23,259 nucleotides of DNA. It comes from Candidatus Electronema aureum. Lineage in GTDB: Bacteria > Desulfobacterota > Desulfobulbia > Desulfobulbales > Desulfobulbaceae. A program made the position numbers and the translations under genes. Shown here piece after piece: positions 1-20,250 of the stretch. The notes beneath the pieces were generated by a model. It made no database searches. It was not told the DNA's origin and saw nothing but the letters and a program-made list of their open reading frames with translations. Numbering within the stretch: position 1 is the first letter of the stretch; each line of letters starts with the position of its first letter. The stretch covers positions 1-23,259 of the forward strand of contig NQJD01000038.1 of the NCBI GenBank assembly GCA_004284765.1, in the 5' to 3' direction.

Positions 1-117
1 TCAACAATGCTGAAAGACCGGTCGCCGTCGTTTGACCGAAGGAACTAATGAGATACTCGCTGTATAAATCAAGCAGGTTCTTTTTTGTCATGCAGGTATC
101 TTACGCCATCTGGGTGC
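1..117 (-). mobile_element. IS end proximal to the transposase start. It holds the 5' part of a DDE transposase gene (IS4-family-like N-terminus) that reads out of the left edge of the window.
   Basis: ATG at 91 on the minus strand gives MTKKNLLDLYSEYLISSFGQTTATGLSALL. From memory this resembles the conserved N-terminus of IS4-type transposases (DYLISSFGxTTATGLS). The terminal repeat CTCACCTTACGCA (reverse complement of 105-117) matches 23135-23147. Confidence 0.7.
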
Positions 118-714
118 GTAAGGTGAGTTATCCAAATAATTGTAGAACTCATTCAGTTGAGAAAGCAATCCACTTAACAGGTATCTATTAAGTGGGTTTT
201 CATTTGAAAGCCGATCTATAGTTTTTCCCTCATTTGCCAAACGAGGAATGAATTTTGATTTATTCACCACAAATATTTTCCTTTCAGGAAACTTTTTATT
301 TAATCCTTTTTTCAGATCATCCACATCTTTTTTGTCTGTGTTATTTATGAGGATCACCACATTTTCATTTAATCCTTTTAGAGTGTTCACCGTCTTAATG
401 CAGGGCATTAAATCCGCCATAGATTGGTAGAAAAGAGGCACAACCAACACATCACAAATCTTGGCAATGCTCTCTATTCTCTCATCCACCCAGCCCCCGA
501 AGTCAAACACCACATCCAGATCAACGGGCAAATTAAGGCTGTCCTCGTTCCTAATGATATGCAATTGGTCTTCTGGGAAAATATCCTTGTAAATCTCAAC
601 TGTTCCGCTCTCGTAGTCGTTGGTGAAGTACAAAGCCCCCCTATGTTTGGCATAGCTTATGGCATGAGTGGTTTTTCCCTGCCCGCCTTTGGACGAATAA
701 AACAATATTTTCAT
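88..714 (-). CDS. parA: ParA/Soj-type partition ATPase. Its 3' end is replaced by IS-derived codons.
   Basis: Deviant Walker A motif SSKGGQGKTT near the N-terminus. AGGAAG Shine-Dalgarno sequence upstream of the ATG at 714. The last ~13 residues (NSPYAPRWRKIPA) are read from the IS end. With the IS removed the frame reads NYLDKF then TAA (23120-23122). Confidence 0.9.
   Translation of the reverse strand: MKILFYSSKGGQGKTTHAISYAKHRGALYFTNDYESGTVEIYKDIFPEDQLHIIRNEDSLNLPVDLDVVFDFGGWVDERIESIAKICDVLVVPLFYQSMADLMPCIKTVNTLKGLNENVVILINNTDKKDVDDLKKGLNKKFPERKIFVVNKSKFIPRLANEGKTIDRLSNENPLNRYLLSGLLSQLNEFYNYLDNSPYAPRWRKIPA
118..125. repeat. Target-site duplication copy TTATCCAA
   Basis: The same 8-mer lies at 23127-23134, directly abutting the other IS terminus. 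Confidence 0.7.
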
Positions 715-774: not shown

Positions 775-940
775 TTCTGTGCTTAAAACACTAAATGCTT
801 TTGACACTAAAACATTTAGTGTTTTAAGTCTAAAGTGTTTTAGCTACTTTAGCATTCTGTGCTTTTAGCACTTAGTGCTAAAATGCTAAAAGCATTGAAA
901 CACAAAAGGCTTAAAGCACTAAATGCTTTAAGCCTTTTGT
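775..940. promoter_or_regulatory. Centromere/operator-like cluster of palindromes upstream of parA
   Basis: Perfect inverted repeats at 782-797/813-828 (16 bp) and 904-918/924-938 (15 bp). Palindromes at 863-883 and 882-896. All are built from the CACTAAA/TTTAGTG and GCTTWAA/TTWAAGC units. Confidence 0.6.
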
Positions 941-966: not shown

Positions 967-1294
967 TTATCTTTTATTAAATTCTATATCTTCAACAAAT
1001 CTTATCTTCTGTTTTTTATCTTCAGTGTAGCACACAAATTTTAGTACAACGACTGTTGTTAGGTAGTTATTTCTCGGTTTTCTTTTTGGCAAAACTGTAG
1101 GTAATGAAAGATTTTTGTTTAACTCTATATGAATTTCATTCTTTAGTCCGTATGATTTATTTATAATTTTCTCTTATTGTTCAAGCATTCTCAATTCAGC
1201 AGTCTGTAAATAAATCAATGGACACCCAGAAATAAGAACCTACAAAATTTCTAATTTTGTAAGAAGCTGTATCAATTATGTTTACTCTAAACAT
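967..1294 (-). pseudogene. Possible frameshifted small gene of unknown family, perhaps the toxin of a degenerate TA pair
   Basis: ATG at 1294 opens a 45-codon frame with two in-frame TGA that ends at TAA (1157). A second frame with no TAA/TAG runs 1173 to 967. The two overlap at an A-rich stretch, which is consistent with a 1-nt frameshift. Confidence 0.3.
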
Positions 1295-1442
1295 ATTGCT
1301 CTTGTTCTAATTCGGTATTTTTATTCCCTTGTTTTTCCATAAGCAATTTAATAAATCCATCTGCATCTTCTACTGTTTGTTTATAAGCAATATCTAATGC
1401 CTCTTCCATTGTGTAGCATTTCTCTCAGTTGCGAATTATCAT
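1287..1442 (-). CDS. Small hypothetical protein (51 aa under code 25), antitoxin-like by position
   Basis: ATG at 1442, one in-frame TGA (1425-1427), stop TAG at 1287-1289. There is an 8-nt ATGTTTAG overlap with the downstream ORF, as is typical of TA operons. No family recognised. Confidence 0.3.
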
Positions 1443-1700
1443 AATATTTTAATTAAATACCAAATTACAGTAACTATAATAATTTTTCATATAAAAGCAA
1501 AAATATATTATACAACATTATAAAAAATATAATAGCTTGAAATAGCGAAACTTGACATTGAAAAAGAATGCTAAATTTTTCTAAAATTTATAAAACGGCT
1601 TTGTAAAGCTATAAACAACCATTTCATCACACCACATAAGAAGTATTATGTGAAGTAGTAAAAAAGTATAAAATATTGATAGAATATATTTGATAATGAT

Positions 1701-1997
1701 TTAAAAATCACCAAAAAATAATTTTTCTCTATCCTGCCTTTCATCCCATACCCTTAAAACTTCAATTACTTCACCTCTGATTAAGTAAATAAAAGAAAAT
1801 GGTGTTTTATGTATAGAAAATTCCATGATATTATTATCTTGAATAAGATGCCCTATATAAGGATTGTTTTTTATTAAACCTTTTGTGCTATGAAATTGTT
1901 TTTGAGCCTTCTCCAATCACTGAGGAAAAATACTTTCATAATAATACCTGAACCATTTTAAATCATTTAACGAGCTTACTAAAAACCTTATCTGCAT
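1701..1997 (-). CDS. parE: ParE/RelE-family toxin (98 aa when TGA is read as Gly)
   Basis: The track shows only the C-terminal 71 aa. Extending upstream through TGA at 1917-1919 reaches the ATG at 1997 and gives MQIRFLVSSLNDLKWFRYYYESIFPQ-G-LEKAQ...FSFIYLIRGEVIEVLRVWDERQD, a ParE-like pattern. It starts 3 nt after the antitoxin stop. Confidence 0.8.
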
Positions 1998-2000
1998 AAT

Positions 2001-2288
2001 CTATTTAGTGTTAGGAAATATATCTGGTTCAGGTGTAGGAAGTTCTTTTTTATTTCCCCATGAATCAACCCAAGTATTTACAATTTCTTCAGAGATAAAT
2101 ATTCCTTTTTCAGCCTCTTCAATAGCCTTTCTCTTCGCTGTTTTAGCCTGCAAAAAACTCTTAATTGCTTGATTGGCAAGATAGGATGGTGAGCGATCAT
2201 TTCTTTTGGCTTCCTGTTCAAGTAGTGCCTTGGTACTTGGATCAAGTCTAAGAGAAAACGGAACAGTAGCAATAGTATTCATATTCAT
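2001..2288 (-). CDS. Ribbon-helix-helix (CopG-family) antitoxin paired with ParE
   Basis: MNMNTIATVPFSLRLDPSTKALLEQEAKRNDRSPSYLANQAIKSFL is an RHH fold pattern. The start at 2288 is preferred over 2342 because a perfect palindrome operator lies at 2293-2330. Stop is TAG. Confidence 0.8.
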   Translation of the reverse strand: MNMNTIATVPFSLRLDPSTKALLEQEAKRNDRSPSYLANQAIKSFLQAKTAKRKAIEEAEKGIFISEEIVNTWVDSWGNKKELPTPEPDIFPNTK

Positions 2289-2292
2289 AAAG

Positions 2293-2330
2293 TTAAAAAG
2301 TATACAATGTGCACATTGTATACTTTTTAA
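2293..2330. promoter_or_regulatory. 38-bp perfect palindrome, likely autoregulatory operator of the RHH antitoxin operon
   Basis: TTAAAAAGTATACAATGTG|CACATTGTATACTTTTTAA, centred between 2311 and 2312 and immediately upstream of the antitoxin start. Confidence 0.7.
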
Positions 2331-2420
2331 AACATCTGTCAAATTATCATATAAAAATCAATAAGAAGTACTTATTAGTAAAAAATACTAATAATATAAT
2401 ATTTGTTATGTGATGTATTC

Positions 2421-3683
2421 TTAGAATAATGTCTTGATGCTATCCTGTACCTTAAAATTTATTTCATTTTCAGTTAGTACCTTGTCTCTGCTGAATAAAT
2501 AAAATTCTAAAAATGTATCGGTAAATCAATTTATTTTTATTTTCTTAAAAATAGATTTTCAAATACTTGTTGAATTCAAATGCTGTATAAAATCATATTC
2601 CAAAATCTTTTTTCTATCCTCTGAAAGACTGCTGTACTTTGTTTTGAACAGATCTTTTAAGTATAATTCAAATTTCTTTTTCCTTTCGCTTTCCTCCTGC
2701 TCTATCCTCTCCTTTTCTTTCTCTAACTCCTTTTTTGATTTAAGCAATTCCTTGTTAGGCAAGTTTCAAGCATAATTATTATTTATAGCCTTTATTAAGA
2801 AAGATGAAGGATTATTTTTATTTCTTATCTTTCAATTATCAAGCTCGTTTTTGAAATACTTGTAATTGTTTTGAATAATGTTTATTCAATAGCTCTCTAT
2901 GAGTTCGTCAATTGTCTCGTTTGGAATCCACTGCAACAGTTCAGACATAAACGGACAAGCAATTTTCCCCATCCCCTCATTATTTTTTCATTCAAAAGTT
3001 TTTATGATAAATTCAATAGAATGCACCTTATTTTTATCTTTCATTTCTTTATATTCAAAAAAGAATTTTTTATGCTTAGATTCTAGTTCAACCTTTGCTG
3101 GTTCAAGAACCCTTGCCTTGAAATTTGAAAACAATTTATATTGATCCTCTTCAAGATTTAATAATCATCTTAGGAAATCAAGTGTAAAAATAAAATTATT
3201 CTTTTTATATTTTCTGTAATTTGCAAGCAATAATTGAAAAATCCTTATTGTATATGCACTCCTAAACCTTATAGCAATTGAAAAATCATAAGACAGGAAA
3301 TTATTTTTTAGATTTAACAAATATGGCTTTAGCTTAGGGTCAATTGATAATTCAACATATCATTCATTTTTAAAATATTCAGCAGAAGAAAGCCAGTTTA
3401 TTTGCAAATCCCTTTCAGGAGAAGTGAATGTTATTCACCTTCTTATAAGATTTCCAGTTATTATTTGAACCTCTTTGTAGAATTTCTTGTTTTTAATATC
3501 TAAAATATCTAGTAAATCTTTTATCTTCAGCTTATAAACTTTGAAATCTGTATCAGTTGGCTGGATTAATGATATTAAGCATAACATTATTTTTTGCTCG
3601 TTCAATGATAACTTGTATTGTGCTATAACCAAATCGTTTGACTGTGTTACCTTGTTGTTTATGTCTAATTTATCAAAAAACAT
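2421..3683 (-). CDS. Rep_3/RepB-family replication initiator Rep1 (420 aa under code 25, nine in-frame TGA)
   Basis: The N-terminal sequence SNDLVIAQYKLSLNEQKIMLCLISLI is a Rep_3 signature. I translated the frame by hand from 3683 to TAA at 2421-2423. It has no TAA/TAG but has TGA at 3435-3437, 3360-3362, 3165-3167, 2559-2561, 2526-2528 and four more sites. The read-through text continues the family pattern (G-YVELSIDPKLKPYLLNLKNNFLSYDFSIAIRFRSAYTIRIFQLL). Confidence 0.85.
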
Positions 3684-3815
3684 AGTATGTTTTATTATGT
3701 TCTAATACAACAGAAATTGTATTTGCAATAATATTTAAGTCAAATTTTTAGGTATGAAAATGTTGCTTTTCTTTTTTATATAAAAATATAATGTAACTAA
3801 TACATCGTAATCAAT

Positions 3816-3930
3816 CTGTAATAGTTAGGTAGGATTATGTAATAGTTTCGTAAGGAAAAAGTAATAGGTCGGTAGGATTATGTAATAGCTCTGTAAGGAT
3901 TATGTAATAGTTAGGTAGGATTATGTAATA
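3816..3930. repeat. Iteron array for Rep1
   Basis: GGATTATGTAATA occurs at 3832, 3875, 3897 and 3918 (spacings 43, 22 and 21 bp), with partial GTAATAG copies at 3819 and 3861. The array is ~130 bp upstream of the Rep1 start. Confidence 0.8.
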
Positions 3931-4003
3931 ATTGACTGTAAAAAACGGCTTATTAAAGCTGAAAAATAAGGTCTCTAAACATATAAAACAAGTAAAACAT
4001 TAT

Positions 4004-4035
4004 AAAACAACAACGAAAGAAACCGTTGTTGTTTT
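4004..4035 (+). terminator. Rho-independent terminator-like hairpin
   Basis: 12-bp perfect stem AAAACAACAACG/CGTTGTTGTTTT with an 8-nt loop, ending in T residues followed by ATTTAAAATTTTT. Confidence 0.5.
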
Positions 4036-4103
4036 ATTTAAAATTTTTGATTTCTTGTATTTTTTCATATAATAGAGAATATTTAAAAATTAAAATAATA
4101 AAA

Positions 4104-4358
4104 ATGACTAAAATTCATAACATATCAGTTACACTGCCATCACAATTTGAAAATCTTTTATTAAATTGAGTAAAATTAAAAGATGGTAAAGATAAAGAAA
4201 CTTTTTTAAAGGAAGAACTTGAAAGGATGTTGATTGATAAAATAGTAGAAGAGCTTGAAGATTATAATTCTGCTATAGAGGCTCACCATGATTTTATTTC
4301 TTCTTGATGAGAGACTATTTCCTTTAAAGAAATAGAGGAAAAATATAATCTTAAATAA
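4104..4358 (+). CDS. relB: RelB-type (RHH-like) antitoxin, 84 aa under code 25
   Basis: ATG at 4104, in-frame TGA at 4167-4169 and a TGA-TGA pair at 4305-4310, stop TAA at 4356-4358. The C-terminus DFISS-GG-ETISFKEIEEKYNLK resembles RelB-type tails. It lies 2 nt upstream of relE. Confidence 0.7.
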
Positions 4359-4360
4359 AA

Positions 4361-4615
4361 ATGAAGGTAGAATTTACTAAAAATGCTGAAAAAGATATTA
4401 GCAAGTTTGATAAAAATATTCAGCTATTAATTAGGAAAAATATAAAAGAAAAACTGTTGATAAATCCAGAATATTATTTAGTTCCTTTAGTTTGAAATTT
4501 AACAGGTCAGTATAAATTTCGTGTTTGAACCTATAGAATTATTTGTGAAAAGCATTATGACAGGCTTGTTATTCTGGTTGTTAGAATAAAACACAGAAAA
4601 GATGTTTATAAATAG
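4361..4615 (+). CDS. relE: RelE-family mRNA interferase toxin, 84 aa under code 25
   Basis: MKVEFTKNAEKDISKFDKNIQ...PLV-TGA-NLTGQYKFRV-TGA-TYRIICEKHYDRLVILVVRIKHRKDVYK. The two TGA (4493-4495, 4526-4528) sit where RelE families have the conserved Gly (L-x-G and R-x-G-x-YR). Confidence 0.85.
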
Positions 4616-4625
4616 TTTTTTAAAA

Positions 4626-5708
4626 TCAAACCCCAAAAGTTGCCACAGGTATTTTTTCTAAACAAATTTGACATTTTTTTCTATTCCCAGCAATCCCCCT
4701 TTCTCTAACCTTGCAAATCTCTTTTTTCAATTTTTTATTATGCCAACAAGATAATGATTCGTGATATTCTGGCAAACCTTCCTGTATTACATCCAAATTT
4801 ATTTGCTCAATTTCCTTGTTTATTCCCCCAAGCATATATTTAGGCAATAGCCCTTTTTTTTCGTTCCACCTCGCCCTAATTTCGGGCACTTTTTTTATAA
4901 AATGGTTCTCTTTGTTTAATTCACATATCTTTTTTATGTAACTATCTGCAATATTATTTTTTATACCACAAACTAAAAGCATTTTTGATAGAATATTTTC
5001 TGGATTATCTATCTCAATGATATCATCAGTTGGTTTTCTAAATAGGAAAAATTTTAAAGCAACTACAGAATTCCTGTCAATTTCTTTTTCATAACCAACA
5101 TTTAAATCACTTTTTTCGTTAATTTCCTCAATAGCTGGGTCAAGTATTCTCTCTCTAAAAGAATTGAAACGGCTATATTTTTTATCAGCACCAAGATAAG
5201 CTTTTAAAACTTTTATTTCAACATACCAAGAGCAATTTTTTTTCCACCTATTTAAATTTTCATATAATTTCCAAGTATAAGCCGACTTGAATTGATAAAC
5301 ATCAGCTAATCTATAAATAGAAAAACAATCTTTTAATTCAAGTAAATATGGCTGAATGTCTGGGTTAATTCTAAACTCAAATTCCCCCTTTCCTCTCTTA
5401 TAAATAAAACCACTGAACCAGTTCCAAAAATGCCGTTCATTACCCTTATCAAAAACAAGAGGCTTATTATTTAGCTCTAACATAGCATTATAAATGACGG
5501 TATAGGCAACTATCCTCATCCATAGGAAATATTTTACTAAATCCGTAATCTTAGCCGTGAATGTTCTATTTTCAGGCTTCCTACTGTCGTAGTGAGCCAA
5601 GCAATAGGCAATAAGGCGAAGTTCAGGCAGGTCAAACTTCGCTAACTTAGTCACAAGATCGTTTGATTTCGCAACTATTGAATTATGATCAGGTTTTTTA
5701 TTTTTCAT
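4626..5708 (-). CDS. Rep_3/RepB-family replication initiator Rep2 (360 aa) with no in-frame TGA
   Basis: MKNKKPDHNSIVAKSNDLVTKLAKFDLPELRLIAYCLAHY is a Rep_3 N-terminus. The ATG at 5708 is preferred to the track start at 5789. The gene ends TGA (4626-4628), TTT, TAA (4620-4622). The C-terminal tail carries C-x10-C-x13-C-x2-C. Confidence 0.85.
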   Translation of the reverse strand: MKNKKPDHNSIVAKSNDLVTKLAKFDLPELRLIAYCLAHYDSRKPENRTFTAKITDLVKYFLWMRIVAYTVIYNAMLELNNKPLVFDKGNERHFWNWFSGFIYKRGKGEFEFRINPDIQPYLLELKDCFSIYRLADVYQFKSAYTWKLYENLNRWKKNCSWYVEIKVLKAYLGADKKYSRFNSFRERILDPAIEEINEKSDLNVGYEKEIDRNSVVALKFFLFRKPTDDIIEIDNPENILSKMLLVCGIKNNIADSYIKKICELNKENHFIKKVPEIRARWNEKKGLLPKYMLGGINKEIEQINLDVIQEGLPEYHESLSCWHNKKLKKEICKVRERGIAGNRKKCQICLEKIPVATFGV

Positions 5709-5919
5709 ACCAAAAATATACCATTCTAAAAGAACAATTACAATATCTACTTGTTTTTTATGACCGTAAAAATGTTGTCGGCTCTTCAAGTCATTGCATA
5801 ATTTTTAAAATTTAAAATTGATTGCAAGTAAAAACAGTAATTTGAGCTATTCGACAACAATGTAACCTATTTTTTGTCGTATGTGCTTGTGTCGTACTGC
5901 CACATCGTGGCACTTGTTC

Positions 5920-5981
5920 GCAGTAAATTTGTTGTCGGCTCGCAGTAAATTTGTTGTCGTATAGCAGTAAATTTGTTGTCG
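5920..5981. repeat. Iteron array for Rep2
   Basis: GCAGTAAATTTGTTGTCG occurs three times at 5920, 5942 and 5964 (exact 22-bp period). An inverted half-site CGACAACAA and a palindrome GCCACATCGTGGC lie just upstream. Confidence 0.85.
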
Positions 5982-6065
5982 CGGTGTAATTGATCCCCAA
6001 TGAAATCAAGGGGTTTCACGAGCGGAAAAGTATAAATCTTTTTTATCTATATAAAAAAGAAAAAG

Positions 6066-6170
6066 TAAAAGGTGGCGGAGCCACAAAAAGAGCCTTGCGG
6101 CTCACTGGTGGCAAGCCACCTTTCAAATGCTTGGCTTTCGCCTCGATGGAAGCCCATAAAATGGGCTTTT
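6066..6170 (+). other. Cluster of GC-rich hairpins in a non-coding island, possibly a structured RNA or protein-binding sites
   Basis: Hairpins GTGGC-GGA-GCCAC (6072-6084), GAGCC-TTGC-GGCTC (6090-6103) and GGTGGC-AA-GCCACC (6107-6120). An outer pairing AAAGGTGGC/GCCACCTTT is possible. AAGCCCA-TAAAA-TGGGCTT followed by TT then follows. Confidence 0.3.
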
Positions 6171-6601
6171 AGAAAAACAACCCTCCAACAATTTCCCCTT
6201 TCCCTCCCATGCAAGAGTGTTTTTTCCTAGAAAAAGAAAACAAAAGCACCTTGGGGGCAAAACTTCACCTTTGAAACCCCTCTAAAAAGAGATAGAACCA
6301 CCCTCTAAGCTCTCCAAACAAGAAAAACGATAAACCCTACCTTGAGGTTCTATTTTTACAAATACGGGGCAAAAGCAGTGATTCTTGAAGGGGTGAGATA
6401 AAACCACCCTTTGACGGGAAGGAGGGGGGCGGAGAGGCAACTATGAACCATGCTTGAGTGAGGTGCTACCTACACCCCCCAAGAAAGGGGGTAGAATGGT
6501 CTTAAAATCTCTGAAAAAACAAAAAACGACCCAACCTACAGGGGGAGTCGTTCTTTTAACTACGGGGCAAATACACCCCTTCTTGAGGGTGTGTACTATT
6601 T

Positions 6602-6910
6602 TCAGGCTTCTTTCACCAAAAAGTCTTCGATGTTCCCGCCCTTCTCCACCAGTTCTGCAACCCAAACTGGACGGCGACCACGACCAGACCAAGTGTTAGA
6701 GTCCTTCTTGTACTTAATCTTGATTTTTTTCGGTTCCTTCTTGAGGCTCAAAATCTCATCCAGAGACAACCCCGCCTTCTCCGCCAACTCTTGAAACTGC
6801 TTTTTCAGCTCCGCTTTCTTCTCCTTCTGCTTTTGAAGAATTAATTCTTCAATCTCTTTTTGCAAAATAACCAATTCTTCAATTGATTTTTTTTCAAAGT
6901 CTTTGTTCAC
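6602..6910 (-). CDS. hns: H-NS-family nucleoid-associated protein
   Basis: The C-terminal TWSGRGRRPVW matches the H-NS DNA-binding loop motif, and the N-terminus is coiled-coil-like. GTG start at 6910 with AAGGAGA 8 nt upstream. The gene ends TGA (6602-6604), AAA, TAG (6596-6598). Confidence 0.8.
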   Translation of the reverse strand: MNKDFEKKSIEELVILQKEIEELILQKQKEKKAELKKQFQELAEKAGLSLDEILSLKKEPKKIKIKYKKDSNTWSGRGRRPVWVAELVEKGGNIEDFLVKEA

Positions 6911-6912
6911 GG

Positions 6913-7803
6913 CTATTCTCCTTGTTTGTGAGAGTTATTTTTTATACCCCTGATGAAATCATTTAAATCTTTGAAACCAGCATAATAACAATTCTTAGAA
7001 ATGCCTTTCAATCTCAATCAAGTCTCTTTTAAAATTCTATTTTTCGTATTTTCTCCGGCTTTGTCGTTATCAAGATAAAAATGCAGTACCGAAGGATTTA
7101 ATTTTTGAATTTTCTCTATTGCTTTTTCTGTTAAACAAACCGAATTTAAAATGATAATTTGCTCGTTTAAAAACTGCTTTTTAGTATATGTTAGATAGGA
7201 AAGAAAATCAATAAATCATTCAAAAATATAGATTTCTCTGTTCCCCTCTTTTCCTTTGATTGTTGTTATATCTTTCGGGGAGAAACAACCCTTGAAAAGG
7301 TTGTTTCTTATTTCGTATCATCCAGAATCATTTTTGAAACCAATTGCAAAATAATCTTTACTTCCTGCTTTGTAGTAAATTTCAACTAAATAATTTTTAG
7401 CTATAGAAATATTTATTTTTCTTTCCTGTAAATAATTAATAAGAGGAAAATATGACAATGGTTTAATTTCTTTTATTAAAATTTTACTTTTTGGCTCAAT
7501 TTCTTTTTTATCTTTTGTTAATACTTGCCTAAAACCAGTGCTGAAAATACTTTGAAGTTTTTTCAATGCTCCTGAAATATCTGTTTGAAACTGTAAAATT
7601 ACAAGGTCAATGATTGTGCCACCTATACCTTCCCCGTGATCATACCAAACATTCAAAGTTTTATTCACCTTAAAAGAGGCAGTTTTTTCTTTTCTTAAAG
7701 GTGAAAAATACCAAAGTTCATTTTTCTGCACTATTTTTGGAGAAAATCAGAGGAATAATAAATAATCCTCAATAGGGATTTGTTTCGCTTGTTTGAAGTC
7801 CAT
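6913..7803 (-). CDS. Toprim-domain DNA primase of the Bacteroides mobilizable-element type, 296 aa under code 25
   Basis: ATG at 7803, TGA at 7747-7749, 7318-7320, 7216-7218 and 7018-7020, stop TAG at 6913-6915. The translation reads MDFKQAKQIPIEDYLLFL-G-FSPK...ELWYFSPLRKEKTASFKVNKTLNVWYDHGEGIGGTIIDL, then ...REIYIFE-G-FIDFLSYL (Toprim EG motif) and YLDNDKAGE. Confidence 0.8.
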
Positions 7804-7857
7804 TTTTTTTATGAAAATAATCTTTATTTTAACTAAAAAATAGGTTATGCAAATGGA

Positions 7858-8070
7858 TTATTTTTTTCTTTTCACCAGTAACTTTTTTCTTCTATCTTCA
7901 CGGGAAATTCAAGAGAAGAAATTTTGCAAAGTTTTGATACTTCGACGACGAGTTAATAATAATGTGATGCAATTGTAATTTTTGTTTTTCTTGTAAATAT
8001 AGAACTCATCAACACAAGAAAATATTCATACTCTCAAACTTCTCTTTATAATCTGCCGTCCGGTTTCCAT
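7858..8070 (-). CDS. Small basic hypothetical protein (70 aa under code 25)
   Basis: ATG at 8070, two in-frame TGA, stop TAA at 7858-7860. It has 71 codons without TAA/TAG in very AT-rich DNA. No family recognised. Confidence 0.35.
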
Positions 8071-8129
8071 ATTGACTAATAAAAGCCAAAAATTGCATAT
8101 CACATGCTTTATTATTTAATTTATAGTTT

Positions 8130-8486
8130 ATGAAAGCAGAAACAGTTATCTTGTGCGATTTGTTACAATGTGGTTTTTTAGATGTAGAATATTTGTCTGA
8201 TATTTGCGAAAGGAATGAAATAGATATTGATACTCAAGAAATAAAGGAAAGTTTTTGAGAATTGCATATGAATGTTTTAATATATGATGCTTTAAGGCAA
8301 ATAGCGGATAAGTTCTTAGACGAAAATTTATATGAAATATGAGAAATTTTAGAGGTGTCAGATATGAAAGAATACATTGCTGAAAATGAGCTTTATGAAA
8401 TCTATACCAATTATTTAGACAGTCATCTATGGTTTAAAGATCAAGAAATTCAAAATTTATTTGAAAATTCAAAGTACCGGAGATAA
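8130..8486 (+). CDS. Strongly acidic hypothetical protein (118 aa under code 25)
   Basis: ATG at 8130, TGA at 8256-8258 and one more, stop TAA at 8484-8486 followed by a terminator hairpin. By my count it has about 28 Asp/Glu against about 10 Lys/Arg. Confidence 0.6.
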
Positions 8487-8728: not shown

Positions 8729-9103
8729 ATGAAAGACAGAAAAGAATACCAAAAGGAATACCTTAAAAAATGGAGAAAAGAAAATAAGGACATTCATATA
8801 TATTTTACACCAGAAGAATACAAATTTTTTGAGGAACTATCAAAAAAGTATGAAGTAAAAACAAGCTCACTTATAAAAACAATGGCAATTTCTCAGGCAA
8901 ACAAAACTCTTTGCTTGCCTAAAGAAATGCAAGAAAAACTAAACGAGTTCGTTTTTCTCATAAGAAACATAGCAAACAATGTGAACCAAATAGCCAGACA
9001 CTCCAACACCATTAAAACCTTAACCGATGAACACGGTTTATTATCCTACCTCAAACAGCTTGAAGAAGCCGTTAAAGAATATGTGAAAAAAGAAAACAAA
9101 TGA
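8729..9103 (+). CDS. mobC: MobC-type relaxosome accessory protein
   Basis: IRNIANNVNQIARHSN matches the MobC signature (NxNQiAr..N). The gene ends TGA (9101-9103), TTA, TAA (9107-9109). There is an ATGA overlap with the relaxase start. Confidence 0.85.
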   Translation: MKDRKEYQKEYLKKWRKENKDIHIYFTPEEYKFFEELSKKYEVKTSSLIKTMAISQANKTLCLPKEMQEKLNEFVFLIRNIANNVNQIARHSNTIKTLTDEHGLLSYLKQLEEAVKEYVKKENK

Positions 9104-10023
9104 TTATAAAATCAATGTCCAGAAAAGAGCCGAGCTTTGCCCAGCTCTCAAATTATATTTTCAAAGGAGCAGACAACAAATACACCTACACAAGAAACCT
9201 TTATGAAAGGGATACTGAAAGCATAACAAGAGAATTTGAAAAAAACTTTAAGCACCTAAAAAGGCAAAAAAACTCAAATGCAATTTACCACGAAATAATA
9301 TCTATCTCAAAAGCAAGCATTGATACAGAAAAACAAAAAGAAAAACTTTTGGAAATAGCTGGTGAATATGCGGAAATAAGGGCGAAAAATTGCCTTGTTT
9401 TCGGCTCCCTTCACGAAGCAGGCAACAACTTTCATTTTCATTTAATGATTAGTTCAAATGGGATCGAACAGAACAGAAATCACTACCTTTCAAAAAAACA
9501 ATTTGACGAAATAAAGAAGGGCTTAGAAAGGTATGTTTTGGAGAAATACCCTGAACTAGACCAAAAACGGGTTATGAACCAAGAAAGGAAAATAGAAGCC
9601 GTATCGCAAAAAGAATTTGAACTCAAAAAAAGAACTGGTGAGATAACAAAAAAAGAATCTATCCAATATCGATTGACTCAAATATTTAATAGATCATCCA
9701 CTAAAGAAATTTTTTTTACTAACCTTGAAAAAGATAAAATTCAAATTTATATCAGAGGAAACACCGTAGGTTTTATAGATTTGTCGGACGACAAGCAGAG
9801 GAAATATAGATTAAAAAAATTAGGATTATCCGAGGAATTTAATAAAATGAGTGAGGTGCTTGCTCGTGAAGTTCCTCACTGTCAGGAACCAGCAAGCAAG
9901 ACCTTTTCAAGGCAGGAAAAACAGGAACAGAAAAAAGAGGAAGCCAGACCGACAAAAGAACAAGAGGCTTTAGATGAACTGAAAAAAATAAGAGATAGTA
10001 AAATTAAAATCAAAAAGATGTGA
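9100..10023 (+). CDS. Relaxase/mobilization nuclease. It is 307 aa under the standard code and would extend to 10263 (387 aa) under code 25.
   Basis: An N-terminal Tyr region (LSNYIFKG) and a histidine triad HEAGNNFHFHLMIS. The TGA at 10021-10023 is in frame with the ORF at 10069-10263, with no intervening TAA/TAG. Confidence 0.85.
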   Translation: MIIKSMSRKEPSFAQLSNYIFKGADNKYTYTRNLYERDTESITREFEKNFKHLKRQKNSNAIYHEIISISKASIDTEKQKEKLLEIAGEYAEIRAKNCLVFGSLHEAGNNFHFHLMISSNGIEQNRNHYLSKKQFDEIKKGLERYVLEKYPELDQKRVMNQERKIEAVSQKEFELKKRTGEITKKESIQYRLTQIFNRSSTKEIFFTNLEKDKIQIYIRGNTVGFIDLSDDKQRKYRLKKLGLSEEFNKMSEVLAREVPHCQEPASKTFSRQEKQEQKKEEARPTKEQEALDELKKIRDSKIKIKKM

Positions 10024-10068: not shown

Positions 10069-10263
10069 GTGTTTGCTGGGATTAAAAGAATTTTAGGAGT
10101 AGATAGGTTGCTTGAAGCAGGAAAAAAAAATGAAAAACCTGAATGGGTCAGGGAAGACGGCACTATTGATAAAGAACAACAGGAGGAAGTCTTGAAGGAA
10201 TTAGAAGCCCAACGAGCTTTGAAAATGGGGAAAAATAAATCGGGATACAAAAAAAGCCTTTAG
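10069..10263 (+). CDS. Either a separate 64-aa ORF (GTG start) or the C-terminal extension of the relaxase
   Basis: Same frame as the relaxase. AAGGAGG lies about 10 nt upstream of the GTG at 10069. Stop TAG at 10261-10263 is embedded in an inverted repeat. Confidence 0.4.
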   Translation: MFAGIKRILGVDRLLEAGKKNEKPEWVREDGTIDKEQQEEVLKELEAQRALKMGKNKSGYKKSL

Positions 10264-10325: not shown

Positions 10326-10340
10326 AACTAACTAAAAAAT

Positions 10341-11807
10341 ATGATAATTTTTAAATTAATCTTTGGCTGGATCATAGATATTCTCCTTACGGGAGGCAAA
10401 TATTTATTATACGGACGGATACTGAAAAATAAGACGGGTTCAAAAATACTTACCCCTAAAGAGATAAAAAGTTTTCTATCTCCAGCACACAAAGGGCTTT
10501 TAATTGATGGAGCCAAAAACCGACTTTCGGTTGCCGAGAGCTTTCAAAATGTTTGTTTTGTGGCAAGGGTAGGAGCAGGAAAAACCACTAAATATATTAT
10601 TCCAAATGTGCTTGATAAAGGCAGACAAAATGTTTCAATGGTGGTGAATGATCCTAAGGGTGAAGTCTATTCTCTAACCGCAGGATATTTACAAGCTAAC
10701 GGGTATAAAATTATAGTTTATAATCCACATAATCTTCTTAATTCTAATTTATTTAATCCTCTTTTAGAGGCAAAAAATCACATAGAACTCGAACAAATAG
10801 CAGAAACTTTAATTTGGATAGGAAACCCAGGAGATAAAGACCCATTTTGGAACAATGGAGCAAGTAGAATAATTTCAGTTTTATTAAAATGCCTTAGTTT
10901 TTCTAAAAATAAACAAAATTTCAATTTGCCTAATCTCTATTATCTTCTTCAAAATTTCGGAGAAATGGGGGAGGGGTTAGATAAGTGGATTTCTCGGAAT
11001 TGCTGGGATCCGACTTGCCCCAACGACAGGTATGTTTTAAACGAATGGAAAGGGGTTTTGACCGGCAACCAAGAAACCGTGCAAAGTTTTGTAGGGGTCT
11101 GTTTAACCTCTCTCAAAGCTCTTTCAAATAGAGACTTACAAGGATTTTTCAGCGATTCAGACTACAAACTTACAAATTTAAGGAAACAAAAAACAGCTAT
11201 ATTTTTCATCACACCACCTGAACACCAGCAATATTATTCATTTGTTACCAGCCTTTTTTTCCGTGCTGTTTTCAACGAATGTATGAGGGATCAACATTTA
11301 AGAGGGAAAAGCCTACCTGTATATATCCTATATGATGAGTTCGGCAATTCATATATCACCGATTTTGTTTCTGTGGCAAATACCATTAGAGGGTATGGTG
11401 TTTCTTTATCTATTGTTTTGCAATCAATTTCACAACTTGCTATGAAATACGGACAAAACACATCTGAAGCAATTCAAGGAGCTTTAAATACTAATATATG
11501 CCTAAGTTCTTCTGATCCTGTAACATCAAAATTCTTTTCTGAACTTTCTGGAAGGGTGAGAGAAAGGCAGGTCAGGGATATAGAAAAAAACATAGAAGAC
11601 TACAGGGAATACAACTTACTCAATACAGATGATGTAAGAACAATGGGACAGGATGAAGCCTTAATAATTTCTAAAAACCGCTATCCTGTAAGATTAAAAG
11701 TAGTTCCGTATTATAATAATAGAATTTTTAAAAAAGCATCTTTATTCCCGAAGCCTAATTTTTCTAATGATGAGAGAAAAATTAATGTTTCATTTGAACA
11801 GTTATAA
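10341..11807 (+). CDS. Type IV coupling protein (TraG/TraD/VirD4 family)
   Basis: Walker A VGAGKTT, Walker B-like VYILYDEFGN, one N-terminal hydrophobic segment. Stop is TAA. About 31 Gly codons by my count, none of them TGA. Confidence 0.9.
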   Translation: MIIFKLIFGWIIDILLTGGKYLLYGRILKNKTGSKILTPKEIKSFLSPAHKGLLIDGAKNRLSVAESFQNVCFVARVGAGKTTKYIIPNVLDKGRQNVSMVVNDPKGEVYSLTAGYLQANGYKIIVYNPHNLLNSNLFNPLLEAKNHIELEQIAETLIWIGNPGDKDPFWNNGASRIISVLLKCLSFSKNKQNFNLPNLYYLLQNFGEMGEGLDKWISRNCWDPTCPNDRYVLNEWKGVLTGNQETVQSFVGVCLTSLKALSNRDLQGFFSDSDYKLTNLRKQKTAIFFITPPEHQQYYSFVTSLFFRAVFNECMRDQHLRGKSLPVYILYDEFGNSYITDFVSVANTIRGYGVSLSIVLQSISQLAMKYGQNTSEAIQGALNTNICLSSSDPVTSKFFSELSGRVRERQVRDIEKNIEDYREYNLLNTDDVRTMGQDEALIISKNRYPVRLKVVPYYNNRIFKKASLFPKPNFSNDERKINVSFEQL

Positions 11808-12464
11808 ATGAATAACTTTGTGTTGTATCTAATAATTTTTTGTTTTGGGTATGTTGCTGGGAAAATTCTATCAAAATTGCATAGATTTTTCTTTCTTATA
11901 GGGTGTTTCCTGTTGATGCCTAAAATATATCAATACAGAAGCCAACATTTATTGATTGTTACTGTTGTTTTTATTCTCGGTGTTGCAAAAGGTTATAAGC
12001 TGTTTCCTAAATTTACAGAAATGCTGGAAGAAATAAAAATATCTATTCATCTTTTCTTTGCTAAGAGGAGAGAAATATCATACAGAACAGCAAAGGAAGA
12101 CTGGAAAGAACAAGAACACATAAATAGCATGAAAGCAGAGGAACTAAGGCTGAAAGAACAGGAGCTATACAAACAAGCCGAGGAAATCAAACGGCAGAAA
12201 CATCGTGCAGACGAGGACTTGAGGAAGGCACGGGAAAAGCAGGCAAAAAATACAAGCTATCCAAACACCTTGCAGGAAGCCTTTGAGGTTCTGGGAACCA
12301 GATCAGGGCTAACAGTCGAGGAATACAAAAGAATTTGGAAACAAGAGGCTTTGAAATATCACCCAGATAGAACAAAAGGGCTTGGTGAAAGATTGCAAAA
12401 ACAAGCGGAAAGTGAAATGAAATCAATAAATAAGGCTTGGGAGATTATAAAAAATAAAGTCTAA
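11808..12464 (+). CDS. Membrane-anchored J-domain (DnaJ-like) protein
   Basis: Two to three N-terminal hydrophobic helices, a charged coiled-coil region, and a C-terminal J-domain with KYHPDR (HPD motif) and flanking helices. The ATG immediately follows the coupling protein TAA. Confidence 0.8.
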   Translation: MNNFVLYLIIFCFGYVAGKILSKLHRFFFLIGCFLLMPKIYQYRSQHLLIVTVVFILGVAKGYKLFPKFTEMLEEIKISIHLFFAKRREISYRTAKEDWKEQEHINSMKAEELRLKEQELYKQAEEIKRQKHRADEDLRKAREKQAKNTSYPNTLQEAFEVLGTRSGLTVEEYKRIWKQEALKYHPDRTKGLGERLQKQAESEMKSINKAWEIIKNKV

Positions 12465-12553: not shown

Positions 12554-15500
12554 ATGTCCAAACAGCCCGCCTCCTTTCGGTCTTTGTGGTCTTTCCTTCC
12601 AGTTTCGATTCTGTTTCTTCTTACAATTTATGAGGGTGTTGCTTTAGCTTGTACCCCGAAAATTGTTTGGGTGGCGGATAACAATATCCCCAATGTCATT
12701 GAAGCAGGAACGGCGGTCACTTTCAAATGGGAAGTGGTCAATAAGTCTTCCTGCAATGCCACCGACCTTCGGGTTGCCTTCTATTCTACCAGCCTAGAAA
12801 GCCCTACTGCCGATTTTGGCGGTGATAATAACCCTTCTTTTTCGCTGAAACCTTGGGAAAAAGGCATTATTGAAGCAAAAATGCCTATTGCTCCAAAAGA
12901 GATAGAGAAATACTTTGAATTAAAATTTGATATTGTCAAAGCTGACGGCACCCCGCTTGTTCCGTTGGCATTAGGACGGTTAGGGGCTGAATTTACAATA
13001 ATCCCCCTTACTGAACCTCCACCAACTCAAAGCTGCACGGCAAATCTTGTATGGGAGGAACCGAAATATGATGCAAAAAAGGTTGCTCCCAGTGTGCCGG
13101 TTCTTTTTGTTTGGACGGTTACAAATATTTCTACAGATTGTGATGCTATAAATTATAGTCCTGTATTTTTTTATGCCGAACCTTCCAGTCAAACCGCAAA
13201 TTATAACGGCACAAGCCACCCTCATTTTGATGCAAAGAGAGGGAAAACAGTCCAAATTCAAGCAAATGTTTTGCTTACACCAGCAGAAGAAGGGAAATAT
13301 AAAGCGGTATTTAATATTTACGATCATAACGGCGATGCTTTGCCTGTTTCGGGTGAAAAGGAACCTCTTTATGCCGAATTTGAGGTCAGCAAAAGTATTC
13401 CGCCCCCGAAAGAACCTTGTGACAGTGTACTTGCTCCGGTGGTGCAGAGTGTTGATTTGGTTCAGCTCGGCAACGACGGCAAGGTGCTTGTAACTGCCAA
13501 TGTTACCAACAGTAGCGGAGAATTAACCGTTACACTGGATTTGAATGGTAAAACCTACACCATGAGTAAGCTCAATTCTGGGGCTTATGGGGCAACAGGC
13601 GAAGGCAATAAGGCGGGAAAAAACGATTACACAGTAACAGCAGGAAACGGCTGCAAATTTCACGGGCTTGACTTCGTTGACGGGGTGCTTTCGTCATACA
13701 ATATGGGCACCTGCTGTCAGGATGCCGATATGTCCTGCAAAAACCAGAGAAAATGCGGACGAAGCCAGTTTGCCGCTTCCAAAGGTCATCCAGTCACCAC
13801 CTACACAGGCAACTTTGCTGAAACCCTGACCGATGGAGCCGTTGCAGGGATAGGCGATGCCGACCTTTTTATAACCAGAGCCTACAACTCCGCCGCCGCT
13901 CTTGCCGATGCCGCCTCTGTTTACAGGCATACAGAGGCGGGAAGGGAAAAGGTTGCAGGCCCGCCCCAGTATTTCGGCACAGGCTGGTCTTCCAATTTGG
14001 ATTCCTTCCTTCTGGCTATGGATTATGCCCCTCTCTACGAGGGAGTGCAGATCAGGTTCCCAGACGGCCACACCCAGAACTTTGAGAAAAGCGGCTCCAG
14101 TTACAAGTCTTCCACACCAGACAACTTTGATGAGCTAACGAAGGAAGGCAACAATTTCGTCCTGAAAAGGAAAAGCAGTCTGGAAACTTGGAGCTTCGGC
14201 TCGGACGGCAAGTTGCTCCAAACCAGCGACCAAAACGGCAACAAAGTTGCCTACACTTATGGCGGCGGATGCCTTGAGAAAATCAGCAGCGGCAGCCGAG
14301 CTGTAACCTTCACTTGCGATGCCAAGGGGCATATCACCAAAGCCCAACTCCCAGAAAATATAGTTATTTCTTACGAGTATAACGATGACCTGCTGACCGC
14401 CATGACGGACGGCAGAGGCAATAAGACCCAGTACACCTACGACGAAAACAAGCAGCTAACCAAAATCAGCACCCCGCTTGGAACACCTTCGGTTCAAATG
14501 AGCTATGACGACCGCTACCGTGTTTCCAGTCAGACCGTGGGGGAAAGCGAGCTGTATGCCTTTGCCTATCAGGGCGAGGATGCGGCAGAAAGCACCACCA
14601 TAACCGACAGCTACGGCAATGCCACCGTGCAGAAGCACGATGAAAAAGGTCGTCAGGTTGAAATAACCCACCCCGACGGCACGACCGAAGAATTTAAGCA
14701 CGACGACCACAACAGCCGCACCTACTACAAAGACCCAGCAGGCGGAGAGTACAGCTATACCTATGATGATAAGGGTAATATGCTTGCTCTGGACGGTCCG
14801 CTTGGGCTGCATAAGGAGTGGAGCTACAGCCAAAGCAACCTTGTGACCGCAACCACGGAAAAGGTGGATGATACCAAAAATAGGAAATTCACCTTTGAGT
14901 ACGATGCCAAAGGCAACCTCTCCAAATTCTGCCTGCCGTTGCAAAACTGCGGCACCGTCACCTACACCGCAGCAGGTCTGCCAGAAAAACTGACCGATCT
15001 TCGGGGTAATATCTCGGTCAATGCCTACAATGCCGAAGGCGACCTCGTGAGTGTGACCGACCCCGAAGGGGCGGTTACAAAGTTCAGCCATGACGGGCTT
15101 GGGCGGACGGTCGGCAAAACCAAACCGCTCGGCAATGCCTACCGCTATGCCTACGACCAAAATTCCAACCTGACCGCCGTTGACGGCCCGCTTGGCTTCC
15201 ATATGGGCTACAGCTACGATGCCAACAACAACCTTGCGGAAAGCACCGATCCGAACGGCGGCAAAAAACGGTACACCTACACCGCCTCTGGCAGTATGAG
15301 TTCCGAGCAGAACCAGCTTGGCTTTGTGACCTCGTTTGCTTACGGGCTGATGAACGAGCGGACAGGGATGACCGATGCCGAGGGCAGGCAGTGGAGCTAT
15401 GCCTATGACTCCATGCTTCGGGTTAAAGAGGTGAGCGGCCCGCTCGGACACCGTCAGGGCTTTGTTTACAATGCCCTTGGAATGATCACCGATGCCACCG

Positions 15501-18829: not shown

Positions 18830-19141
18830 ATGAATAACAACAGATTGACTACAGCATGGTACTGTAGGGTTTGTGGCTTGAATCAAAATTATATTCATTG
18901 GGATGTTGATAAACAACTTCCACCTACTTATGATTTTTGTGATTGTTGTAATGCTCAGTTTGGTTATAATGATTCAAATAATATAGCTATATCTATTTAT
19001 AGAAAAAGATGGATTGATTCTGGAGCTGAATGGAGCAATAGAACCAGAAGAATGGAAGAATGGAATCTTAAGGAACAATTAAAGAATATTCCTGATGAAT
19101 ATAGAGATAATTTTGTATTATCTTTGATTTCTGAGAAATAA
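18830..19141 (+). CDS. Putative cognate immunity protein, Cys-rich (zinc-ribbon-like)
   Basis: It lies immediately downstream of the toxin tip and has the same AT-rich composition. C-x2-C (CRVC) and C-x-C-C (CDCC) pairs sit 23 residues apart. The ATG at 18830 is preferred to the TTG at 18791. Stop is TAA. Confidence 0.55.
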   Translation: MNNNRLTTAWYCRVCGLNQNYIHWDVDKQLPPTYDFCDCCNAQFGYNDSNNIAISIYRKRWIDSGAEWSNRTRRMEEWNLKEQLKNIPDEYRDNFVLSLISEK

Positions 19142-19187: not shown

Positions 19188-19610
19188 TCAAAAAGGTTTC
19201 CACGGATTGATTATCACCTGATGACTCGGTGCAAAATCATCCTCATTTCGTGTTACAACCACCATTTGATGAGCTGATGCCGTAGCAGCAATATATCCGT
19301 CAATAACAGACATCCGTTGTCCTGCTTCCTCTGCCATAGCTTGCAGGATTCCCCATGCTTCAGCTATAGCACGATCAACAGGGATAATCCGATCACTGTA
19401 ATCGGCTAAAAGCATTTCAAACCAGCCCGATAGCCGAGTTTTCTTCTTTGAGTCAGGCATTCTTGCAATGCCTCGTTTCACCTCGCCAATCGTGAGAGCA
19501 CTTAAAAAAAGATGCTCGGAAGGAACCGATGCGAGCCAGTTCATTACTGCCTTATTTGGAACTGGTCTCACCAATTCAGAAATTATGCAGGTATCGAGCA
19601 GATAATTCAT
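19188..19610 (-). CDS. vapC: VapC PIN-domain toxin
   Basis: MNYLLDTCIISELVRP...TRNEDDF shows the PIN acidic residues in the usual order. ATGA overlap with the upstream antitoxin. Stop is TGA. Confidence 0.9.
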   Translation of the reverse strand: MNYLLDTCIISELVRPVPNKAVMNWLASVPSEHLFLSALTIGEVKRGIARMPDSKKKTRLSGWFEMLLADYSDRIIPVDRAIAEAWGILQAMAEEAGQRMSVIDGYIAATASAHQMVVVTRNEDDFAPSHQVIINPWKPF

Positions 19611-20248: not shown

Positions 20249-20250
20249 GC

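Follow-up and report, generated by a model that had tools for sequence, protein, structure and literature searches.

The DNA analysed here, called the window throughout, is a contig of 23,259 bp deposited under the NCBI metagenome-assembled genome (MAG) 'Candidatus Electronema aureum', a freshwater cable bacterium (proteins TAA74128 to TAA74146). It is a near-complete plasmid of ~23 kb that carries three Rep_3 replicons and a mobilisation module made up of MobC, a relaxase and a type IV coupling protein (T4CP). The main new result of the analysis is a strict and conserved two-class use of the TGA codon within one plasmid family, code 25 (TGA = Gly) itself being already known: genes that need TGA to be read as glycine are carried on the same molecule as genes that never hold TGA internally yet frequently use it as their stop. 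Family comparisons were made on 12 related loci from different samples; related contigs are designated here by L numbers.

In-frame TGA codons and which amino acid they encode

Eight genes of the window were found to hold in-frame TGA codons, 24 in all, with no internal TAA or TAG. They are listed below together with the remnant of a further TGA-using gene.

967..1306, minus strand: remnant of the orf113 family of TGA-using genes, lying in two reading frames in the window and intact in L004, L014 and L015
1287..1442, minus strand: orf1287, 51 aa, one TGA (1425-1427), kept in L004, L008 and L015
1701..1997, minus strand: ParE-type toxin, 98 aa, one TGA (1917-1919); Pfam ParE_toxin 22.9 bits vs a cut-off of 23, with X at the TGA
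2421..3683, minus strand: Rep1, Rep_3 initiator, 420 aa, nine TGA (codons 83, 108, 173, 232, 266, 284, 306, 375 and 386)
4104..4358, plus strand: candidate RelB-like antitoxin, 84 aa, three TGA (4167-4169 and a doublet at 4305-4310); no Pfam match
4361..4615, plus strand: RelE/ParE-family toxin (RelE), 84 aa, two TGA (4493-4495 and 4526-4528); Pfam ParE_toxin 2.6e-10, 41.2 bits vs a cut-off of 23
6913..7803, minus strand: Toprim (DnaG-like) primase, 296 aa, four TGA (codons 19, 162, 196 and 262); Pfam Toprim_2 5e-11
8130..8486, plus strand: acidic open reading frame (ORF), 118 aa, two TGA (8256-8258 and 8340-8342), conserved in L005, L007 and L008; no Pfam match
22627..22809, minus strand: DUF7706 protein, 60 aa, two TGA (22675-22677 and 22642-22644); Pfam DUF7706 3.7e-20 with TGA read as G

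The ORFs named in the original prediction, which had proposed that many backbone genes of this DNA are written in code 25, were all present at their coordinates and were broken by TGA alone; orf1287 comes in addition to them. The ParE-type toxin shares 64% identity with a relative that matches ParE_toxin in Pfam, and orthologues of the RelB-like ORF, which lies upstream of RelE, occur in L008 and L015. The N-terminal Zn_ribbon_DnaG match of the primase was weak (19.1 bits vs a cut-off of 24.9). The split of the orf113 remnant could correspond to a frameshift, a pseudogene or an assembly error. In 200 composition-matched shuffles, the longest TGA-containing ORF free of TAA and TAG had a mean length of 117 codons and a maximum of 223, as compared with the 420 codons of Rep1. 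Re-calling of genes, which had been put forward as a check, raised the coding density of positions 1287-8486 from 0.54 in code 11 to 0.83 with TGA as sense, vs a change from 0.96 to 0.97 in positions 8700-21900.

The identity of the encoded residue was examined on aligned homologue sets of Rep1 (64 proteins), primase (120) and RelE (150), from which close relatives were excluded because the source database had rendered their TGA as W in a code-4 gene call. Such entries of the public protein collection (P0001-P0005, P0066 and P0185) are relatives of Rep1, primase and RelE with W where Gly is meant. Summed over 12 TGA columns against the distant homologues, the log2-odds scores were +17.8 bits for Gly, -4.4 for Ser and -48.3 for Trp, and the mean Gly score per column was 1.48 at TGA vs 1.47 at the GGN codons of the same proteins. 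The TGG codons of these genes fell on Trp columns, with +3.95 bits per column. Glycine was present in 64% and 75% of 149 homologues at the RelE columns of aa 45 and 56, and in 84%, 91% and 96% of the homologues at primase aa 19, 162 and 196; one of the primase TGAs corresponds to the E-G glycine of the Toprim domain, in a column with 96% G. The ParE TGA (aa 27) was opposite Gly in 4/4 TGA-free relatives, and in Rep1 the columns of aa 108 and aa 284 contained 75% and 33% G, respectively. The proposal that TGA falls at conserved glycines was thus borne out for RelE, ParE, three primase sites and two Rep1 sites, but not for the remaining Rep1 sites, located in variable or gappy columns, nor for codon 71 of the acidic ORF (8340-8342). 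This codon was opposite Cys (TGY) in three relatives, the sole column pointing away from Gly, and was matched by TGA in a second L008 paralogue.

Among orthologues, the codon columns with TGA contained 119 partner codons. GGN was the commonest partner (40/119), the others being mostly Ser, Glu, Lys, Asn and Asp codons, and neither TGG nor internal TAA/TAG was found among them. In addition, Pfam domains extended across the TGA sites when these were read as X or G. Selenocysteine at TGA was also considered and rejected. On the basis of these sequence comparisons, we consider the reading of TGA as Gly in the eight genes secure and code 4 excluded, in agreement with the original prediction.

A decoding of TGA as tryptophan, which is how the public protein collection renders the close relatives, has a negligible probability in view of the Trp score, of the true TGG codons lying on Trp columns and of the complete lack of TGA-to-TGG exchange among orthologues. 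The same negligible probability applies to an assembly chimera of DNA from differently coded organisms, a possibility that would suit the mosaic GC content of the window (0.25 to 0.55). Sequence 100% identical to the window was assembled independently in two Logan assemblies, from runs SRR14559659 (20.9 kb) and SRR14559660 (15.7 kb + 1.6 kb). Furthermore, a relative from another continent, L008 (23.1 kb), found in Columbia River estuary sediment, is collinear with the window at ~80% nucleotide identity and shows the same gene mix, with a Rep1 with nine TGA, a primase with four TGA at other sites, T4CP and an RHS toxin. Since the joins between AT-rich and GC-rich DNA are the same in three assemblies and are kept in L008, they are real and do not result from a chimera.

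Codon usage in these genes was uneven. Nine of the 12 Gly codons of Rep1 are TGA and three are GGN, exactly the proportion announced. The extension of this observation to TGA as the dominant Gly codon was valid for Rep1, the RelB-like ORF, RelE, the acidic ORF and DUF7706, whose two in-frame TGAs are its only Gly codons, and failed for the primase (4/21), ParE (1/5) and orf1287 (1/3), where the TGA share is lower.

Comparison of Rep1 with its L008 orthologue (86% identical) gave a ratio of nonsynonymous to synonymous substitution rates (dN/dS) of 0.079 at a dS of 0.93, with no gaps over 420 codons, and Rep1 is therefore not a pseudogene, as the original prediction had held for these genes. This result bears on the idea that the TGA genes are dead remnants of a code-25 element, passively carried by a standard-code plasmid that would use the other two initiators, Rep2 and Rep3. 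These have iterons of their own and could maintain the plasmid without Rep1, and the orf113 remnant (967-1306) does appear frameshifted in the window. However, besides the constraint on Rep1, the primase also showed a low dN/dS (0.17), full-length TGA-only ORFs have been retained in seven lineages down to 43% identity, and no internal TAA/TAG has accumulated despite a GC content of 27%, so that we assign this idea only a very slight probability.

The relatives contain one more TGA-rich gene that is missing from the window. It encodes HEPN-NT, a fused nucleotidyltransferase (NTase)-HEPN protein of ~290 aa, and was located in L004 (1375-2253), L008 (5280-6155), L005 (4039-4947) and L014. TGA represents 8-12 of its 10-13 Gly codons, including those of the catalytic 'GS' motif and of the NTase 'RG' glycine. 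In L005 and L008 the gene was uncalled or fragmented in the source gene calls.

Two classes of genes in one plasmid family

The second class of genes (class 2, as opposed to the class 1 genes described above) comprises ParA, ParD, Rep2, Rep3, H-NS, MobC, relaxase, T4CP, DnaJ, RHS, VapBC and RelB-YafQ, all of them with zero in-frame TGA. The TGA-free genes of the window and their neighbours are the following.

88..714, minus strand: ParA-like partition ATPase (UniRef name CobQ/CobB/MinD/ParA), 0 TGA/11 GGN; it terminates in TGA and its read-through frame exits the contig end
2001..2288, minus strand: ribbon-helix-helix (RHH; ParD/RelB3-like) antitoxin, partner of ParE, no TGA; relatives carry Pfam RelB3_C
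4626..5708, minus strand: Rep2, Rep_3 initiator, 360 aa, 0 TGA/14 GGN, with end TGA-TTT-TAA
6602..6910, minus strand: H-NS-like protein, directly downstream of the primase, Pfam Histone_HNS 2.6e-13, no in-frame TGA, with end TGA-AAA-TAG
8729..9103, plus strand: MobC/NikA-like relaxase accessory protein, no in-frame TGA; TGA stop with TAA one codon on, the stop overlapping the relaxase start (ATGA)
9100..10023, plus strand: MobA/VirD2-type relaxase, 307 aa, no in-frame TGA, with end KKM-TGA
10069..10263, plus strand: conserved small ORF, 64 aa, preceded by an AAGGAGG Shine-Dalgarno of its own, GTG start, in the same frame as the relaxase
10341..11807, plus strand: T4CP (VirD4/TraG), Pfam T4SS-DNA_transf 8e-53, 0 TGA/31 GGN, TAA stop
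11808..12464, plus strand: membrane protein with C-terminal DnaJ domain, no TGA
12554..18772, plus strand: RHS/YD-repeat toxin, 2072 aa, GC ~0.5, Pfam RHS_repeat and TEN_YD-shell, 0 TGA/177 GGN, TGA stop
18830..19141, plus strand: putative RHS immunity ORF, 103 aa, in frame with the RHS stop codon; no Pfam match
19188..19861, minus strand: VapC (PIN; 19188-19610) and Phd/YefM antitoxin (19607-19861), no in-frame TGA, both with TGA stop
19997..20520, plus strand: RelB (19997-20248) and YafQ (20251-20520) pair, GC 0.44-0.49, no in-frame TGA; YafQ has a TGA stop
20897..21841, minus strand: Rep3, third Rep_3 initiator, 314 aa, no in-frame TGA, TGA stop
22834..23010, minus strand: small TGA-free ORF, homologous to the gene following parA in L009 and L012

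In the window, 23 TGA and 27 GGN codons were counted in seven TGA-using genes (orf1287 being outside the tally) vs 0 TGA and 293 GGN in 16 TGA-free genes. The difference persisted when the TGA-free set was restricted to its AT-rich genes (0 TGA/96 GGN vs 23/27; Fisher, 3e-13), and the GC content at third codon positions (GC3) of the AT-rich genes overlapped between TGA-using (0.15-0.35) and TGA-free (0.21-0.35) genes. The window thus departs from a uniform code 25, given that it has 16 genes without in-frame TGA and that ten of them terminate in TGA where orthologues have TAA or TAG. The view that the plasmid backbone is written in code 25 consequently stood for the eight genes of the first class, but not for ParA, Rep2, Rep3, H-NS, MobC, relaxase, T4CP and DnaJ, which have no in-frame TGA and many of which end in this codon.

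The same division was observed over the 12 loci. TGA/GGN counts were 58/24 for Rep1, 39/9 for HEPN-NT, 8/1 for RelE, 8/2 for the RelB-like ORF, 4/0 for DUF7706 and 9/4 for orf113, vs 0/74 for Rep2, 0/20 for Rep3, 0/43 for H-NS, 0/13 for MobC, 0/92 for the relaxase, 0/167 for T4CP, 0/46 for DnaJ, 0/58 for ParA, 0/16 for ParD and 0/309 for RHS. Less extreme values were found for the acidic ORF (8/10), orf1287 (4/3), the primase (13/148) and ParE (3/20). Between the window and L008, dN/dS values of 0.046, 0.09 and 0.15 were obtained for T4CP, relaxase and RHS, respectively, and dS ranged from 0.4 to 1.8 across genes. The class split is therefore a trait of the whole family that has been kept through ~1 substitution per synonymous site, with purifying selection on both classes. 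The TGA sites of the primase are almost wholly different between relatives, whereas T4CP on the same plasmids gains none. In addition, pairwise identities of Rep1 tracked those of T4CP and relaxase (rho 0.94) and of ParA (0.77), in correlations based on 6-10 non-independent pairs.

One branch of the family, formed by L010/L011 and L012 (GCA_002754885.1, PDWJ01 contigs), is very AT-rich (GC 0.25) and has zero in-frame TGA in all its genes, which indicates that the shared core also exists in a purely standard-code-compatible form. Another feature was seen upstream of the genes: a Shine-Dalgarno-like motif at 5-15 nt was present in none of the eight TGA-using genes, whose leaders are A/T runs in the 25 nt upstream scanned, vs ~7 of 15 TGA-free genes (ParA, H-NS, small ORF, RHS, VapC, Phd and Rep3), so the mode of translation start may also differ between both sets.

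The first stop codon in the TGA-free families was TAA in 32 cases, TGA in 29 and TAG in 7, and the same terminus alternated between TGA and TAA/TAG among orthologues, e.g. those of MobC, H-NS, Rep2, DnaJ, T4CP, ParA and the primase. Judged from these alignments, TGA at the alternating termini holds the position of a real stop. The next in-frame TAA or TAG was located at a median of 5 codons after a terminal TGA vs 26 codons after a TAA/TAG stop (Mann-Whitney p 0.0066 with the relaxase excluded, on 19 vs 39 phylogenetically related termini). With the relaxase, a special conserved case, included, the test gave no significance (p 0.22). A backup stop lies one codon beyond the TGA in Rep2, H-NS and MobC of the window; the GC-rich cargo and Rep3 are without backup stops, and their read-through extensions range from 13 to 148 codons.

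The relaxase ends in KKM- or KKK-TGA, with TGA at the same site in the window and in six relatives (L005, L007, L008, L009, L013 and L014) and never TAA, TAG or GGN. In five of these six relatives, a 45-nt linker without in-frame TAA/TAG leads from the relaxase stop into the small ORF in the same frame, so that code 25 would give a fusion of ~390 aa and code 11 two proteins. The existence of a single read-through protein, suggested by a TGA/GGA swap, was not proven. Against it, the small ORF has a conserved AAGGAGG Shine-Dalgarno and a GTG/ATG start, the swap falls in the spacer between them, the linker lacks a third-position bias (variable sites 11/7/10 by codon position), and all the database relatives of the relaxase terminate at KKM. 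Inside a code-25 cell, the fusion is possible. A comparable arrangement was observed for the RHS gene, whose stop TGA (18770-18772) is in frame with the putative immunity ORF with no TAA/TAG in between, and a cell reading TGA as Gly would produce a fusion of 2195 aa.

These data can be confronted with another scheme, in which the plasmid would have a code-25 host only, the TGA-free genes being imports from standard-code plasmids, replaced repeatedly or not yet adapted, and their terminal TGAs being read through. In line with it, the assignment of TGA to Gly is secure, the close backup stops after terminal TGA suit a read-through host, the L010 and L012 branch has the TGA-free core alone in apparently standard-code settings, and the cargo is compositionally foreign (GC3 of 0.56 in RHS). 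Nevertheless, no TGA is found among ~840 Gly codons in up to nine lineages at a dS of at least 1, while the primase gains and loses TGA; the GC3 of the AT-rich genes overlaps in both classes; the co-divergence of Rep1 with T4CP, relaxase and ParA speaks against independent recent imports; and orthologue termini alternate between TGA and TAA. We consider this scheme unlikely, while giving it far more weight than the dead-remnant or the chimera explanation.

Plasmid anatomy, source and relatives

The three initiators gave clear Pfam matches to Rep3_N and Rep3_C (5e-35 and 9e-13 for Rep1, 5e-28 and 8e-16 for Rep2, and 8e-36 and 7e-15 for Rep3), and three different iteron-like arrays of 21-22 bp were located each just upstream of one Rep_3 gene, from which the plasmid appears to carry three separate replicons. 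The repeats found in the window (no strand assigned) are listed below.

779..930: inverted and tandem repeat cluster upstream of parA, candidate centromere/operator, with a motif like CACTAAATGCTTT
3817..3930: iteron-like repeats, 21-22 bp, ~5 copies, upstream of Rep1, candidate origin of replicon 1
5918..5981: iteron-like repeats, 22 bp, 2.9 copies, upstream of Rep2
21997..22064: iteron-like repeats, 21 bp, ~3 copies, upstream of Rep3

A 24-bp tandem repeat at 10253-10318, in the stretch separating the small ORF from the T4CP gene, contains a motif also present in the repeats upstream of parA (roughly CTTTAGTGCTTAA / CACTAAATGC), and similar repeats follow the small ORF of L008. These repeats could correspond to a centromere, an operator or an origin of transfer (oriT). 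A perfect hairpin of 19 bp (AAAGAAAAACACACACACA / TGTGTGTGTGTTTTTCTTT), located past the Rep3 iterons at 22118-22160, is the source of spurious Rfam microRNA matches. In two GC-rich stretches (0.42-0.50), at 5990-6600 and 22100-22600, neither code yielded a convincing ORF and Rfam gave no match; the first stretch is not conserved in L008.

Four toxin-antitoxin pairs are present on the window, and the RHS toxin has 83% amino acid identity to that of L008. Genes for mating-pair formation or other components of a type IV secretion system (T4SS) were not detected among the ORFs scanned with Pfam, so the plasmid seems to be mobilisable and not self-transmissible. In relatives parA is followed by a gene that in the window sits at the opposite end of the contig, which suggests a circular molecule cut within the par operon.

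Annotated in code 11, the GenBank record lacks the Rep1, primase and toxin genes or has them in pieces, and the contig may not belong to Ca. Electronema aureum. Two relatives were binned in Ca. Electrothrix sp. GM3_4, whose sample comes from Gulf of Mexico subtidal sediment (PMC10580974), and 'Desulfobulbus sp. F1' has a member in the VapC cluster, defined at 90% identity or more. Other searches for relatives gave little. Megablast of the whole window against PLSDB and a phage collection yielded no nucleotide match, and at the protein level T4CP and Rep1 were both <40% identical to any PLSDB record, the best matches being plasmids of Sulfitobacter and Desulfotalea psychrophila for T4CP (~38%) and of Clostridium and Bacillus for Rep1 (~35%). 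No relative was found in GTDB species genomes scanned with the relaxase protein and with the relaxase alignment, nor in a metagenome scan with the relaxase alignment or a scan of viral contigs with Rep1. A search with a degenerate DNA pattern returned three loci only, one of them among the relatives already collected. The named homologues were not from the candidate phyla radiation (CPR), to which Gracilibacteria and Absconditabacteria belong, with the exception of one Peribacteria relaxase at 39% identity.

Hosts, decoding and known systems

ARAGORN detected no tRNA gene in the window nor in ten related contigs, the Rfam scan of the window produced no family match, only sub-threshold microRNA-like hairpins, and no release-factor or aminoacyl-tRNA-synthetase gene was found among the ORFs annotated with Pfam. 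The lack of tRNA genes on the window and its ten relatives implies that the decoding of TGA as Gly would have to come from the host cell. These negative results also concern the proposal that a standard-code host, such as a cable bacterium, harbours a plasmid that itself switches TGA decoding in the way of stop-codon-recoded phages, whose early genes are code-compatible and whose recoded genes are unlocked by a suppressor tRNA. Such a proposal would explain two gene classes on one element, as in those phages, and the binning of the contig with cable bacteria; nonetheless, the absence of any of these decoding genes from a near-complete 23-kb window, and of tRNA genes from ten related contigs, makes it quite improbable.

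We regard as moderately probable that the plasmid family combines a core readable in both codes with a gene set readable only in code 25. The core would include the partition, Rep2/Rep3 and transfer genes; the code-25-only set would consist of a full replicon (Rep1 and primase) and toxins (RelBE and ParE, plus HEPN-NT in relatives). Genes of the first class would be translatable only in a code-25 host of the Gracilibacteria/Absconditabacteria type, in which TGA is no terminator and a tRNA-Gly(UCA) is supplied by the cell. The second class would stay free of internal TGA on account of standard-code ribosomes having to read it too, and the backup TAA/TAG after its terminal TGAs would limit read-through in a code-25 cell. 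The GC-rich RHS and toxin-antitoxin cargo would also point to cable-bacterium, standard-code cells. In a standard-code cell the code-25-only set would be silent and, for that reason, harmless. The absence of internal TGA through long divergence indicates selection by a standard-code translation system, and the backup stops together with the TGA-rich genes indicate a system in which TGA is Gly; a dual-code core with a code-25-only set is the simplest reading to account for TGA avoidance, backup stops and TGA-rich genes together.

As for the cells involved, from the code alone we infer a Gracilibacteria/Absconditabacteria host lineage. The standard-code partner is plausibly a cable bacterium, given that the window was binned in Ca. 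Electronema aureum and two relatives in Ca. Electrothrix sp. GM3_4, and given the VapC match. A more specific and tentative possibility, to which we give less credit than to the dual-code core as such, is that these are 'bilingual' shuttle plasmids moving between standard-code cable bacteria and a partner that reads TGA as Gly, with codon reassignment acting as a host-specific expression lock. The partner might be, e.g., a Gracilibacteria- or Absconditabacteria-like epibiont or predator on cable-bacterium filaments, and the Rep1/primase replicon and the RelBE, ParE and HEPN-NT toxins would be expressed in the code-25 cell only.

Several points weigh against a dual-code plasmid shared by two kinds of cell. 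Neither of the two scans of GTDB species genomes recovered a relative, a low-GC plasmid contig binned in a MAG or in a filament-derived genome is weak evidence of residence, and a limited literature search located no report directly associating cable bacteria with Gracilibacteria or Absconditabacteria. The avoidance of TGA in the second class could derive from repeated recombination with a standard-code plasmid pool instead of shuttling. Long code-25 extensions (Rep3 +148 codons, RHS +122, YafQ +60 and relaxase +79) fit full dual compatibility poorly. To these must be added the few non-independent pairs behind the co-divergence correlations, the relatedness of the termini in the backup-stop test and the Cys column of the acidic ORF.

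A reassigned stop codon is usually expected to block gene flow. Should the dual-host reading hold, plasmids are able to live across two genetic codes, replication and toxin genes can be switched in a host-specific manner by codon reassignment, and the heavily studied cable bacteria exchange DNA with a code-25 partner that has gone unrecognised.

Regarding known systems, the window resembles Rep_3 iteron plasmids with a mobilisation (MOB) module in having Rep3_N/Rep3_C proteins beside iterons along with a relaxase, an accessory protein, T4CP, toxin-antitoxin pairs and ParA, and differs from them in carrying three Rep_3 replicons per molecule, including one that cannot be read outside code 25. 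Stop-codon-recoded phages, a looser parallel, reportedly have two gene sets, with TAG or TGA reassigned to other amino acids in standard-code hosts, and usually carry suppressor tRNAs. As in these phages, code-compatible and recoded genes stand side by side in the window, suggesting expression control through decoding; unlike them, TGA is read as Gly and no tRNA is found on the window or its ten relatives.

Code 25 is known from Gracilibacteria (BD1-5) and Absconditabacteria (SR1) (PMC4032931, PMC11452946), where it was inferred, as here, by alignment to conserved columns, and also by proteomics (PMC4032931). The TGA-using genes of the window share with these lineages the location of TGA at conserved Gly, the use of TAA and TAG as their only stops and AT-rich DNA. 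In contrast with code-25 genomes, the present case is a plasmid in which only eight of ~24 genes are affected, with TGA accounting for 70-100% of the Gly codons in several of them, and its contig is filed under a standard-code cable bacterium. A limited literature search retrieved no description of a code-25 plasmid. Phages linked to code-25 hosts have been described with no in-frame TGA and with different stop codons stacked at gene ends, which ensures the same reading in both codes (PMC10746230). The class 2 genes of the window, with 0/293 TGA and nearby backup stops, are similar to the genes of such phages; however, those phages are dual-code throughout, whereas the window is a three-replicon plasmid in which eight genes need TGA to be read as Gly.

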